Below are positions 50,344-54,278 of a stretch of 64,000 nucleotides of DNA, piece after piece. Where the stretch lies: the NCBI GenBank assembly GCA_041690135.1, contig JAWLHY010000006.1:230337-294336 (forward strand), given 5' to 3'. The translations under genes and the position numbers were made by a program. Below the pieces are notes generated by a model that saw only the letters and a list, made by a program, of their open reading frames with translations, was not told where the DNA came from and did not search any database. The stretch is from Armatimonadota bacterium. GTDB taxonomy: Bacteria > Armatimonadota > SYMT01. Within the stretch, counting starts at the first letter, position 1. Each line of letters begins with the position of its first letter.

Positions 50344-50530
50344 GGCGCGGAGAGGCTGGTAACCACAGGCCGACGCCACGTGGCGTTGCGGCAGCTCTGC
50401 GACCCGGACGCTCACACAGCAATACAACTGTGCCCTAAGACCGACCGTTGGTCAGTTTAGGTGCGAGGGCAAGAATCTGATGGCGCAAGCGACCTGACCC
50501 TTTGGTCGCTGAACAATGAACCGAAACGGC

Positions 50531-50585
50531 TCCGGTTGCCAACTTCCTTCCTGGCCTCTCGGCAGGTAAGACGTTGGCAACCGGA
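50531..50585 (-). other. Long 3' stem-loop downstream of the selenoprotein gene
   Basis: 13-bp perfect stem (50531-50543 and 50573-50585) enclosing CCUG/CAGG and a GAGA tetraloop on the minus strand. Confidence 0.7.
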
Positions 50586-50606
50586 ACTTGAGTGCCAGGG
50601 GACCCC

Positions 50607-52100
50607 TCAGGGCTTTTCCGCCAGGAGAGCCTTAACCTGGTCGAGCACGCCCTGCTCGTTGAAGCCGGCTTCCAGGTAGCGCAGCACGCCTTTCCGGTCG
50701 ATGACTGCGACCGTGGGGAAAGCCTGCACCTGGTAAGCCTGGGAGGCCACATCGTCCAGGTCCATCATGACCGGATAGGTCACCCCGTGCTTGTCCACGA
50801 ACTCGCGGGCCATGCGCATCGGATCGGAGCGCTCACCGGCGTTGACGCCGAACACCATCAAACCCTGCTCGCGATACTTGTTCCAGATCTCTTTTTCCAT
50901 ACGCGGAGCCTCCGCGTTGCAGGGTCCTCACCAGGAGGCGAACCAGTTCAGCAGCACCACCTTACCGCGGTGCTCTGAAAGCTTCGCCTCTTTTCCATCG
51001 AGAGTTTTGAGCTGGACCTCCGGCGCGGGCTTGCCGACCGAAGCGAAGCGCGCGGCCTGCTTTTCGTGCAGGGCCTTCACTTCCGCCAGGGTGAGTTCCC
51101 GATCCCCCTGTTTGTAACGGACCGGAGGATCGAATCGCCCGTCCGCCACCAGGGTGCCCGCGGGGAAATCGACCGTCAACTCTTCCGGGCGGACCGGGAC
51201 GTTGATCTGCGAGCCTTCGATCTTGTAGGTGGAGAGCATGCCCCGGTTCAGGGCCCCGGTGATGTAGATGAGGTGTTCGACGCTCTTCAGGGCAAGGCCG
51301 CTCTTGGTGACCTCGTGCGTGATCTTCAGCTCCTGCCCTCGCGCCACCGGGCCCTGGGGCGTAACGGTATCGCCCGCCATCATCAGCTTCTCCAGGGCAT
51401 AGCGCGGCGCGGTCCGGAGAATCGCGGTCACCCGGTCTTCACCCCGCGTTCCGCTGAGGGTCATCAGACCCTTCGAAGGCTTGGCCGAGGACCAGGTGAT
51501 CCCTTCGAGCAGGTCGGCACCCCGCATCACCAGCAAACGGTCCGGCGCTGTCTGGTCCGGTTGCGGGCCTACCTGGCCCACGCGCTCCAGCTTTTCGGCA
51601 CGGCCAGTCTCCTGGAGCACCCGGCCCAGGTCCTTCGCCACACCGACGAGGTAGTGGGCTTGGGTGTCCCCCTGGGCATCCATCACCGTGACATCACGCT
51701 TCCAATCGTCACCGGAAAAGAGGAGGTATTCGCGCCGCTGGGTACCGACCGGTGCCTTCGCAATGGCCGATCGCACAGTCGCACGCTGGGTGCCCTCCGG
51801 CAGATCGACCTGGCGTTGTGCCACGTGCAGCGAGATGCGACCGCTCTTGACCCGAGCCTCATCCTTCTTGAGTTGAGCTACGGCCTTTTCCGCAAGAGCA
51901 GATCCCTTGGGCGAATTGGCCGATTTAGGCGCCGCGGGCCTGGCGGGCGGTTTGGCAGCGGTTGCCCTGGTGGCGGCAGACTTTTTGGCCGCGGGAGGGG
52001 CCAGGGTAGCCGACACCGGCTGGCACCCCACGCTGGCGGCCGTGATTCCGGCCGCGGCCACCGCTCCGAGAGCACAGCGGATCCGGGTCTTCTCGTTCAT
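50607..52100 (-). CDS. Selenocysteine-containing TlpA/redoxin lipoprotein (497 aa, Sec391, motif WUGPC) with an N-terminal LolA-like beta domain
   Basis: In-frame TGA at 50928-50930 in GKVVLLNWFASW*GPCNAEAP. The frame continues through VFGVN and AFPTVAVIDRKG to the stop at 50607. Lipobox SVGC. Confidence 0.92.
50898..50919 (-). promoter_or_regulatory. Bacterial SECIS-like hairpin
   Basis: ACGCGGA-GGC-UCCGCGU: a 7-bp perfect stem from nt 11 after the UGA, with a loop G at nt 18. Confidence 0.8.
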
Positions 52101-53527
52101 TGCATCTCCTTATCGAGGAGGCCCCACGCGGCGGCCAGTGCGGCGGCCTGGACCTTCTTGACCGGCGCCCCGGTCGCAGCCGAACATTTACGGCAATCCT
52201 CGTATTCGGGGGTTGCGGTGCGGATCTCACCATCCTGCCGCGCAACCTTCACCCTGACTTCTCCATACGGTGTTTCCACCGCAAGCCATTCCCGTGGGAG
52301 GCAATCCCGGCTCCAGCTCGAATACCGCACCCCAAATGTTGTGGTCTCCTGGAATAGAACCCGGGTGAGTACTTCGCGTTTCGCCGGATCACACAGCACA
52401 CTCAGGGTAAGGGCCGGCCGGTTCTTCTTCATCTGGATCGGCGTCCACCACACGTCCAGCGCCCCGGCGGCGAAAAGCCCCTCCATCACCGGCTCGAACA
52501 ACTGCGGGGACTGATCGTCGATATTCGCCTCGATCAACGTGACCTGCGTGGGCTCGGACTCTACCTCGGCCAGCTCCCCGATCACCACCCGGAGCAGGTT
52601 GGGGAACGGAAAGTTTTTCATCCCTGCCCCGTACCCGATTTCGTGTACGGTGAGCGGCGGCAGGTCCCCGAACTCTGGGGACAACGTACTGGCGAGGGCA
52701 GCCCCGGTGGGGGTGACCAGCTCTCCTTCCACGTCCACGTGGCGTAGGGGGCAGCCTTTGAGTAACTCCATGGTGGCCGGGGGCGGCACCGGCATCATTC
52801 CGTGCGCGCACCTCACGAAGCCATGCCCCGTCGGCAACGGTGAGCACACCACGCGCTCCACTCTTAGCAGGTGCAATGCATAGACGGAGCCCACCACATC
52901 CACAATGCTGTCTACAGCGCCCACTTCGTGGAAATGAACTGCCTCCAGGGTGGACCCGTGGACGGCCGCTTCGGCCTCCGCCAACCGTCGATAGACCCGT
53001 TCGGCATCCCGCTTCACCCCCTCCGGTAACCCACTCGCACGGATCAGGGCCGCTACCTCAGTGAAGGTGCGGGTGCCGGCGTGAGCATTGGGCATTGGGC
53101 ACTCAGACGTTGGGCGATCAGGCGTTGGGGACTGGGGATCGTGATCGTGATCGTGATCGTGATCGGCTTCCCTTCTCTCCTCGCCGTGAGAATGGCTATG
53201 GCCGTGGGAATGCTGCGTGTGCTCGTGGGTGTGGTGCGAGTGTTCGTGGGTGTGGGTGTGGCCGGAGGGTTCTGGGAGGGGGGCGTCGGTGGGTGGGAGG
53301 CGCAGGAGGGGCGCGGAGCCGGCGACCTCGCCGTGGACCAGGACCTCCACATGCGTCGCGGCAATGCCGGATTTCCAGGCGCGCCTGACTTCGAGGTCCC
53401 AGCCGGGCAGGTCGAGGGTGTGCAGGCCTTCCACCAACAACCCCGCATCCACCCCCGCGTCCAGCAGGGCACCCAGCATCATGTCGCCGCTGATTCCACC
53501 GATGCAATCCAGGTAGGCTACTCGCAT
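52097..53527 (-). CDS. larC: Nickel-pincer cofactor biosynthesis protein LarC (single unsplit ORF)
   Basis: GISGDMMLGALLD, His-rich linker, HFHEVGAVDSIVD, GELVTPTGAA, EANIDD, MKKNRP, ETTTFGVR, PEYED. Confidence 0.96.
   Translation of the reverse strand: MRVAYLDCIGGISGDMMLGALLDAGVDAGLLVEGLHTLDLPGWDLEVRRAWKSGIAATHVEVLVHGEVAGSAPLLRLPPTDAPLPEPSGHTHTHEHSHHTHEHTQHSHGHSHSHGEERREADHDHDHDHDPQSPTPDRPTSECPMPNAHAGTRTFTEVAALIRASGLPEGVKRDAERVYRRLAEAEAAVHGSTLEAVHFHEVGAVDSIVDVVGSVYALHLLRVERVVCSPLPTGHGFVRCAHGMMPVPPPATMELLKGCPLRHVDVEGELVTPTGAALASTLSPEFGDLPPLTVHEIGYGAGMKNFPFPNLLRVVIGELAEVESEPTQVTLIEANIDDQSPQLFEPVMEGLFAAGALDVWWTPIQMKKNRPALTLSVLCDPAKREVLTRVLFQETTTFGVRYSSWSRDCLPREWLAVETPYGEVRVKVARQDGEIRTATPEYEDCRKCSAATGAPVKKVQAAALAAAWGLLDKEMQ
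53082..53165. repeat. Heptamer-like (TGGGCAT-type) and hexamer (GATCGT) tandem repeats inside larC
   Basis: tgagcat-tgggcat-tgggcac...ttgggga-ctgggga followed by gatcgt x4. Encodes DHDHDHDHDPQSPTPDRPTSECPMPNAH. Confidence 0.7.
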
Positions 53528-53528
53528 A

Positions 53529-54278
53529 TTAATCCCGGCAGATGAGGTGCGCCACGTACCCGGCGCCGAAGCCGTTGTCGATGTTGACGACCACTACCCC
53601 CGTCGCGCACGAATTGAGCATGCCCAGAAGCGCGGCCACTCCCTGGAAGCTGGCGCCGTAGCCCACGCTGGTGGGGACGGCGATCACCGGCACTTCCACG
53701 AGGCCACCAACCACGCTGGGCAGAGCGCCCTCCATTCCGGCGACAACCACCAGGGCCTTCGCTTTGACCAGGGCATCCCGTGCGGCGAGAATCCGATGGA
53801 GACCGGCCACTCCGCAGTCGTACAACCGCTCCACCCGACTCCCTAACGCTTCCGCAGTAACAGCGGCTTCCTCCGCCACCGGTTGGTCGGAGGTCCCCGC
53901 GCTCACCACGAGAACATGGGGAGCATCCGCGGGTGGTTCCGGACGAGGCTCCGCTCGCAACTCCACGATCCGTGCGGGGGAATGCAAAACGGCTTCCGGA
54001 AAGATCTCCGCAACTGCGGCAAACTGTTCCGGGGAGATGCGCGTACCCAGGACGAACCCGTGCCGCTCGTAGAGCCGTGCCGCGATGGCGACCACCTGGT
54101 CCGCCGTCTTGCCGGCGCAGTAGATCACCTCGGGCACGCCCTTGCGGAGGTGGCGGTGCGTGTCCACACGCGCGAAACCCAGGTCTTCGTAGGGCGCCCA
54201 CTTGAGCGCTGCCACCGCATCTTCGATGGTGAGGATGCCGGACTGGACGCCGGCCAGGATCTCTCGAATGTTGTCCAC
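53529..54278 (-). CDS. larB: Nickel-pincer cofactor biosynthesis protein LarB
   Basis: [58 protein letters not shown]. Confidence 0.96.

Follow-up and report, generated by a model that had tools for sequence, protein, structure and literature searches.

The stretch of DNA considered here (64,000 nucleotides of contig JAWLHY010000006.1 from an Armatimonadota bacterium; hereafter the window) contains on its minus strand a reading frame that begins with an ATG at 52100, ends with a TGA stop at 50609-50607, and is interrupted only once, by a TGA at 50930-50928 that lies within W-TGA-G-P-C. The called open reading frame (ORF; 52100..50928, 390 codons) has the C-terminal end ...GKVVLLNWFASW-TGA, and past the internal TGA the same frame resumes with GPCNAEAPRMEKE... 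and continues to the stop. Read-through gives a product of 497 amino acids (aa) in which the TGA corresponds to residue 391. The Pfam Redoxin/AhpC-TSA match (residues 355-484, E ~1e-24) straddles the internal TGA, and the two ORF fragments are therefore halves of one domain. Past the TGA, the frame encodes both the cis-Pro loop F-P-T and IDRKG. An earlier reading, made from the letters and their ORFs (the sequence-only reading), had held that two same-frame fragments parted only by this TGA, the second of them intact, make up a single gene for a protein containing selenocysteine (Sec); upon re-examination of the sequence and ORFs, all of its coordinates and motifs proved correct. We are highly confident that this is a real selenoprotein gene that gene callers have split in two, and we put at roughly 0.85 the probability of the fuller reading, namely that one gene encodes an exported 497-aa selenoprotein made up of a signal peptide, a linker, a LolA-superfamily beta domain, and a ResA/TlpA-type domain with a W-U-G-P-C active site. 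Note that TGA is an ordinary stop in this genome; it terminates both the selenoprotein gene itself and the LarC-like gene that lies upstream.

The internal TGA occupies a Cys position in homologues

A word-indexed protein search returned 48 hits, 28 of which share the whole architecture or its N-terminal part. In an alignment of these with the window protein (alignment A1, 29 rows), 23 of the 28 homologues carry a Cys in the column of residue 391, as expected if the TGA sits at the nucleophilic Cys of a CxxC motif. The motif in question is mostly CGPC (also CPPC, CEPC, and CPAC), the flanks are conserved on both sides, and the full-length Cys homologues (459-477 aa) align with the window protein from end to end. 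The remaining five homologues (P0023, P0025, P0026, P0027, and P0033; 348-365 aa) are represented by called ORFs whose final residues are ...WFASW. Thus public ORFs of the Sec forms stop where the sequence-only reading had said that gene callers would break the gene.

When the N-terminal domain was used by itself in an exhaustive search, only 42 representatives were found at E<=0.001 among 1.84 billion proteins. Eleven of these end in ...ASW, 7 have W-CxxC, 11 (317-534 aa) are without a CxxC, and 13 are fragments or other proteins. One match, P0069 (2403 aa, with the type IX secretion sorting domain Por_Secre_tail), aligned with residues 246-280 of the N-terminal domain in 14 repeated stretches, a match that is probably due to a short repeated beta-hairpin and not to homology. 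We also searched translated genomes in a manner that reads through stops and counts them. At the family level a match at E<=1e-20 was found in each of 7 genomes; at the phylum level 16 of 401 genomes had a match at E<=1e-40, and among the 17 matches listed 15 contain exactly one TGA.

A SECIS-like hairpin accompanies the TGA forms

In bacteria, the selenocysteine insertion sequence (SECIS) is a stem-loop just downstream of the UGA with a small, G-containing apical loop, as set out in PMC1088965. The window has a stem-loop of this form: the 7-bp hairpin with a G-led loop that had been noted 11-27 nt after the UGA is matched exactly, at 50917-50901, where ACGCGGA / GGC / UCCGCGU sits within the codons for N-A-E-A-P-R.

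We used a script to locate every G[KRQ]...W-[stop/C]-x-x-C site, which yielded 26 distinct stretches with TGA and 7 with TGC. The TGA stretches come from genomes of the phylum and from metagenomes; the loci scanned included 4 genome-contig loci (one of them identical to a stretch already included) and 11 metagenome loci. All 26 TGA stretches have the stop at W-stop-x-x-C and a stem-loop at a constant distance downstream. The fold energy of the 27-nt segment ranges from -8.8 to -14.5 kcal/mol in the TGA forms, whereas it ranges from -1.4 to -6.8 kcal/mol in the 7 Cys forms. The GGC loop and the synonymous sites of GAG-GCU-CC are invariant across the TGA forms. Three of the Cys forms retain A-E-A-P with other codons (GCG GAA GCA CCC in L008, GCC GAG GCG CCC in L037, and ...CCA CAC in L020), and in each of them the stem is broken. 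The proposal that homologues would have either Cys or a conserved TGA at this codon is thus borne out in both its parts, with the hairpin kept in TGA forms and lost in Cys forms.

Paired changes within the stem point in the same direction. In an alignment of the 26 TGA stretches (alignment A4) 92.3% of cells are paired, and changes on both sides occur at 4 of 8 pairs. Columns 21-35 hold C-G in 24 rows and U-A in 2; columns 23-33 hold C-G in 25 rows and U-A in 1; and columns 20-36 hold A-U in 21 rows, G-C in 2, C-G in 1, and G-U in 1. The outer pair (columns 19-37) is weak, being paired in only 11 of 26 rows. The covariation score was 0.130 against 0.069 in shuffles and was reached by 0 of 500 shuffles, and controls in which the structure was slid along the alignment were 27-55% paired compared with 92% for the proposed structure.

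Several observations weigh against giving the hairpin too much credit. Taken alone it is only mildly unusual (z of -1.9 for a 76-nt fold, with 8 of 200 shuffles folding equally well); it overlaps the codons of the conserved A-E-A-P-R, and its conservation is in part a constraint on the protein; 12 of the genomes belong to one genus, so that many of the 26 TGA stretches are not independent; and its apical loop, at 3 nt, is small compared with most of those described for bacterial SECIS elements. The significance of the hairpin therefore stems from the comparison of TGA with Cys forms and not from the fold of a single sequence. That contrast is what would be predicted for a SECIS under selection, in spite of kinship among the sequences and the constraint on codons. 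It also amounts to a natural experiment on the evolution of a SECIS within coding sequence, with the A-E-A-P codons locked in a hairpin under UGA and drifting under UGC.

A scan of 50500-51100 with Rfam at E<=1 gave two chance-level microRNA matches and no bacterial SECIS family. A scan of the genome for the same hairpin core after an open-frame TGA gave 10 candidates, of which only two have a redoxin setting and the remaining 8 appear to be chance occurrences.

The genome encodes selenocysteine machinery

If the internal UGA is decoded as Sec, the genome should contain selA, selB, selC, and selD, and a search of the source assembly (9.1 Mb) found all four. A selA gene (481 bits) is followed directly by selD (370 bits, with one in-frame TGA of its own), and a tRNA-SeC with anticodon tca lies ~460 nt beyond selD; this cluster occupies C1:1149693-1152363 (loci L001 and L005). 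A SelB winged-helix domain (82 bits) was found in a 644-aa frame. Among five other genomes with TGA forms that we examined, SelA was found in four, and the fifth is 86% complete.

The in-frame TGA of selD, at C1:1150907, reads ...VKCGG-TGA-ASK..., and selD is itself probably a selenoprotein gene. About 26 nt after this UGA is a hairpin with a 7-bp stem and a G-led triloop, GUG; the resemblance to the hairpin in the window is suggestive, and we did not use it as evidence.

These results bear on whether the TGA in the window might be a nonsense mutation or an assembly error, which would make the locus a pseudogene or the gene for a truncated LolA-like protein. Gene callers do stop at the TGA. 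Moreover, public reads leave the base unconfirmed, as they give only fragmentary contigs that are <90% alike over the TGA (four DNA runs hold 8-15% of sampled words, no contig spans the gene, and no RNA run is listed). An explanation of this kind is nevertheless extremely unlikely when set against the recurrence of TGA at this codon in 26 distinct stretches (at least 14 genomes are represented, along with several metagenome contigs), a downstream half that is intact and conserved, a hairpin that co-occurs with TGA and is lost with TGC, and the presence of the Sec machinery.

Domain architecture of the predicted protein

Features of the gene and its predicted product are collected in Table 1. 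A structural model of the full-length protein, built from 29 aligned sequences, has a mean predicted local distance difference test score (pLDDT) of 87 and a predicted template modelling score (pTM) of 0.72, with residues 1-50 disordered.

Table 1. Features of the selenoprotein gene in the window and the basis on which each was assigned.
Feature	Position	Strand	Basis
Complete coding sequence, predicted 497-aa selenoprotein with Sec at residue 391	50610..52100	-	Frame, Pfam span, end-to-end alignment with 459-477-aa Cys homologues
In-frame UGA, predicted Sec (U391), first position of W-U-G-P-C	50928..50930	-	Cys column in homologues; TGA shared by 26 distinct DNA stretches
SECIS-like hairpin, 7-bp stem ACGCGGA/UCCGCGU, triloop GGC	50901..50917	-	+11 to +27 after UGA; kept in 26/26 TGA forms
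Signal peptide with possible lipobox, residues 1-26, ...AASVG-C26	52023..52100	-	By eye; Cys not conserved in homologues
Ala/Pro/Lys-rich linker, predicted disordered, residues 27-64	51909..52022	-	pLDDT <50 for residues 1-50, low until ~60
LolA-superfamily domain, ~residues 65-335, N-terminal helix then long antiparallel sheet	51096..51908	-	Model pLDDT 95.5, Foldseek, VIA-align
ResA/TlpA-like thioredoxin-fold (Redoxin/AhpC-TSA) domain, residues 355-484	50649..51038	-	Pfam E 1e-24, Foldseek to ResA
Shine-Dalgarno-like AAGGAG, 5 nt before ATG	52106..52111	-	Sequence

The C-terminal domain resembles reductases of the TlpA/ResA type. Its closest structures in Foldseek were ResA (1su9/1st9; E ~1e-13, template modelling (TM) score of 0.89-0.91 normalized to the target, ~30% identity), together with other TlpA-like reductases, and in Pfam it matched Redoxin (E 1.6e-24) and, as the best match, AhpC-TSA (E 1.3e-24). 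The domain thereby falls within the TlpA/ResA-like thioredoxin fold (cd02966; PF08534/PF00578). The active site reads W-U-G-P-C, with U in the column of the first Cys, and P462 of the F-P-T loop, which we take to be the cis-Pro typical of the family, is invariant in alignment A5. The top-ranking NCBIfam models for this domain were ResA, DsbE, the WAxxUGC ResA-like selenoprotein model, StoA, and TlpA, all of them below cut-off.

The N-terminal domain (residues 62-350), when modelled alone, gave a pLDDT of 95.5 and a pTM of 0.89, and consists in the model of one helix followed by a long antiparallel sheet. All of the top Foldseek matches were LolA-like (LolA3, LolA, 'lipoprotein-sorting protein domain', and DUF1329; E 1e-6 to 1e-4, with LolA3/LolA at 1e-6 to 1e-5). 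A search of 48,161 chains that is independent of Foldseek (VIA-align) ranked DUF1329 4z48 (Z of 14.4), LolA3 9tp6 (14.2), Escherichia coli LolA 6f3z_B (14.1), and LolB 9tpm (13.8) well apart from transmembrane barrels and other chains outside the LolA fold, which start at a Z of 9.7. At the level of the fold, the model thus belongs with the LolA/LolB superfamily, whose antiparallel beta barrels are unclosed and typically carry a helical lid or plug. By contrast, residues 1-337 had no match in Pfam (E<=1) or in NCBIfam (E<=0.1), so that membership of LolA, LolB, or DUF1329 by sequence was not found. The suggestion in the sequence-only reading of a LolA-like middle domain, to be checked with Foldseek, therefore holds for the fold (Z ~14), with no sequence-family match. 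A language-model look-up, which we took as a lead only, returned 'outer membrane lipoprotein-sorting protein' and TP_0789-like clusters.

Comparison with LolA, LolA3, and LolB of Porphyromonas gingivalis, DUF1329 (4z48), and 3bk5 shows what the domain shares with these proteins and what it does not. A predicted N-terminal helix and long curved antiparallel sheet are common to all, and 184-214 residues align with a root-mean-square deviation of 3.3-4.6 A. However, identity is 7-12%, there is no Pfam match, the domain in the window is longer (~270 residues compared with ~180 in LolA), and it is permanently fused to a redoxin, with no link to LolCDE or lipoprotein sorting in this analysis. LolA-fold proteins bind acyl chains, as is established for LolA. 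The two domains of the selenoprotein appear to work together, because every full-length relative of the N-terminal domain that we checked also carries a redoxin or AhpC-TSA domain.

Export of the family is well supported by the N-termini of its members, as signal peptides of homologues mostly end in A-x-A and are followed by an Ala/Pro/Lys-rich stretch. The N-terminus of the window protein, MNEKTRIR-C-ALGAVAAAGITAASVG-C26 (MNEKTRIRCALGAVAAAGITAASVG-C26), by eye fits the lipobox pattern and resembles a lipoprotein signal. Cys26 lies within an insertion, and no Cys is conserved there among the 26 homologues that have an N-terminus. The description of the protein as a lipoprotein in the sequence-only reading is thus plausible for this member and does not extend to its homologues; we regard a lipid anchor at Cys26, in the window protein only, as about an even bet.

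Exchange of Sec and Cys within the family

A quick tree was built from 45 N-terminal parts (12 Sec, 24 Cys, and 9 CxxC-less), excluding fragments and P0068. On this tree the Sec forms are mixed among the Cys forms, at least 3 changes are required by the starred branches and 8-9 by the topology as drawn, and the sister of the window protein is a Cys form (support of 98). It counts against this result that, for 11 of those 12 Sec rows, the state was read solely from the end of the called ORF. As judged from these sequences, Sec and Cys have been exchanged several times in the family.

Eleven distant relatives (P0067, P0068, P0072, P0075, P0078, P0079, P0081, P0082, P0083, P0085, and P0086; 24-30% identity in the N-terminal domain) keep both the LolA-like and the AhpC-TSA/Redoxin domains. 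None of them has a CxxC, they contain 0-2 Cys in total, and their redoxin domain is probably redox-dead. The nine that are on the quick tree form one clade with a support of 99.

Proposed function of the selenoprotein

We think it probable that the protein is an extracytoplasmic thiol-disulfide reductase. It shares with ResA of Bacillus subtilis and with TlpA, CcmG, and DsbE the fold, a W-x-x-P-C-type site, the conserved Pro in the F-P-T loop, and export, and, as in ResA-type systems, the source genome has a CcdA/DsbD-type partner. Unlike ResA, it has Sec in place of the nucleophilic Cys and a thioredoxin-like G-P motif where ResA has E-P; unlike this group of reductases it has an extra domain and a gene without neighbours for cytochrome-c biogenesis. 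There are three points that count against this assignment. First, the NCBIfam cut-offs are not reached (ResA, 99.8 bits vs 170; DsbE, 56.9 vs 123; TlpA, 44.9 vs 230; the ResA-like selenoprotein model WAxxUGC_long, 52.2 vs 300). Second, the selenoprotein gene is not flanked by any cytochrome-c, copper, or Msr gene. Third, the CxxC-less sister clade keeps both domains, which means that the scaffold also works without redox chemistry and suggests that it has a binding role independent of catalysis.

In the mechanism that we propose, a ribosome would reach the UGA at 50930-50928, where SelB with Sec-tRNA(Sec) would bind the GC-rich, GGC-loop hairpin 11 nt downstream, and Sec would be inserted in place of termination. 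Outside the cytoplasmic membrane, the selenolate of Sec391 would attack a substrate disulfide or other oxidised sulfur species, Cys394 would resolve the mixed selenenylsulfide, and the U-C pair would then regain its electrons, in all likelihood from the one membrane electron carrier of CcdA/DsbD type that the genome encodes. The LolA-like domain may serve as a docking or ligand-binding module. The decoding steps are modelled on what is established for bacterial SelB and SECIS elements and the chemistry on the TlpA/ResA-type family; the anatomy alone is a direct result of our analysis.

Alternatively, the UGA might act mainly as a selenium-dependent switch, such that translation would ordinarily yield the 390-aa LolA-like protein and the redoxin would be added only when selenium is available. 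Sec insertion in bacteria competes with termination, and the sister clade shows that the two-domain scaffold manages without redox chemistry. We nonetheless find a switch very unlikely, given that the 390-aa product would break off early in the thioredoxin fold, among its first strands (residues 355-390), likely leaving an unstable stub, and that Cys forms of the family are always full length.

Another possibility is that a real selenoprotein acts here as a peroxidase of the peroxiredoxin (Prx) or glutathione peroxidase (GPx) type, for example on lipid hydroperoxides in the LolA-like cavity, and not as a disulfide reductase. Peroxiredoxins have the motif P-x-x-x-T/S-x-x-C/U, and proteins of the thioredoxin/TlpA type have W-x-G-P-C. 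The window sequence L-N-W-F-A-S-W-U-G-P-C is without Pro or Thr at the required spacing and has the second of these motifs rather than P-x-x-x-T-x-x-C; in addition, the nearest structures are ResA/TlpA-like reductases (TM of 0.9), and the best NCBIfam models are ResA, DsbE, and TlpA. We therefore judge a peroxidase to be unlikely, even though AhpC-TSA is the best Pfam match, GSHPx also matches weakly (22.8 bits vs a cut-off of 27), and the acyl-chain binding of LolA would suit such a substrate. 'Prx-like UxxC' selenoproteins are also a known class (PMC1088965).

The fusion of a LolA fold to a TlpA-like redox centre points to a redox function in the cell envelope with a hydrophobic or lipoprotein partner. 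A more specific version is that the barrel holds a hydrophobic ligand (lipoprotein acyl chains or an oxidised membrane lipid) near the selenolate, and that the protein would thus be a 'lipid-guided' seleno-reductase of the envelope; it could be, for instance, a periplasmic lipid-hydroperoxide reductase or a lipoprotein-thiol repair enzyme. This version is compatible with our results because the domain fusion is obligate, Sec and Cys have been exchanged repeatedly, and the CxxC-less clade suggests a binding device, but it is a long shot. The idea in the sequence-only reading that the protein couples lipoprotein handling to thiol redox control is speculation.

Relationship to known selenoproteins

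Selenoproteins with UxxC in TlpA-like, Prx-like, and redoxin domains have already been catalogued (PMC13188914, PMC1088965); the table in PMC13188914 includes a 'Redoxin family' and 'Thiol-disulfide isomerase-like' proteins. The window protein is like the catalogued proteins in its domain families (PF00578/PF08534), in having Sec first in UxxC, in the existence of Cys homologues, and in having a stem-loop with a G in a small apical loop after the UGA. Set against the families as these papers describe them, it is unlike them in its N-terminal fusion to a LolA-fold domain of ~290 residues, and it does not attain the cut-off of any NCBIfam selenoprotein model.

Searches of full-text literature, which did not extend to the supplements of selenoproteome papers, found no description, among the papers listed, of a LolA-fold domain fused to a TlpA-like domain, and for selenocysteine or selenoproteins in Armatimonadota a listing-level search returned a single paper that names the phylum, on hydrogenases. 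The window protein thus apparently represents a new subfamily, with an apparently undescribed domain architecture, of the known class of UxxC selenoproteins, and its function is one that we infer. As the UxxC thioredoxin-fold class is well known, the surprise to a specialist would be only moderate. There is a practical consequence for annotation, in that public gene calls are wrong wherever the family uses Sec: the first 350-390 aa appear under the name 'hypothetical protein', and the redoxin half goes missing. Re-annotation is needed for the gene in the window and also for one further gene of this genome and for tandem genes of a different genus, both of which are described below.

Gene neighbourhood and related Sec-redoxins

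Directly upstream of the selenoprotein gene, on the same strand, are LarC-like and LarB-like (AIRC) genes (52097-54278, minus strand). The nearer of these (ORF 52097-53527, minus strand) matches Ni_insertion/LarC with an E of 6e-143, and the selenoprotein start overlaps its stop as ATGA. We considered a functional link to these nickel-pincer cofactor genes and dropped it, as the synteny is not kept beside the homologues in genomes G005 and G063. The one DsbD_TM/CcdA gene of the genome (99.5 bits) lies on contig C15. A scan for promoters and terminators found nothing near the gene above the expectation from shuffles. Just past the stop is a 12-nt inverted repeat, CCGGTTGCCAAC ... GTTGGCAACCGG (50530-50585, minus strand), with a T-rich stretch after it, which may be a terminator that the consensus scan missed because its loop is long.

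The second split selenoprotein gene of this genome is on contig C19, with its TGA at 85004 on the minus strand (locus L049, 4682-6565, minus strand). In its product a YNCE/NHL-like beta-propeller precedes a redoxin domain that is split at ...NFFASW-TGA-GPCNAEAP...; the gene has the same GCGGAGGCUCCGC core, and is adjoined by a gene for an extracytoplasmic function (ECF) sigma factor.

Tandem Sec-redoxin genes are present in genus g52, in which 12 genomes were sampled. They come in arrays of two or three, have the same hairpin, and are flanked by hemA (glutamyl-tRNA reductase) on one side and a gene for cytochrome-c assembly (PF01578) on the other; in one example (L048; G066:C20:33000-46000) the TGAs are at ~4633, 6164, and 7585, and loci L019-L030 are arranged likewise. 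This gene context fits a ResA-like role for the g52 proteins, which show ~45% identity in the redoxin domain. A sequence-profile comparison detected no N-terminal domain shared with the window protein, in that only the start of the redoxin aligned and the ~320-aa N-terminal parts of the g52 proteins have no LolA-like profile match; what they have in common with the gene in the window is the module of redoxin and SECIS.

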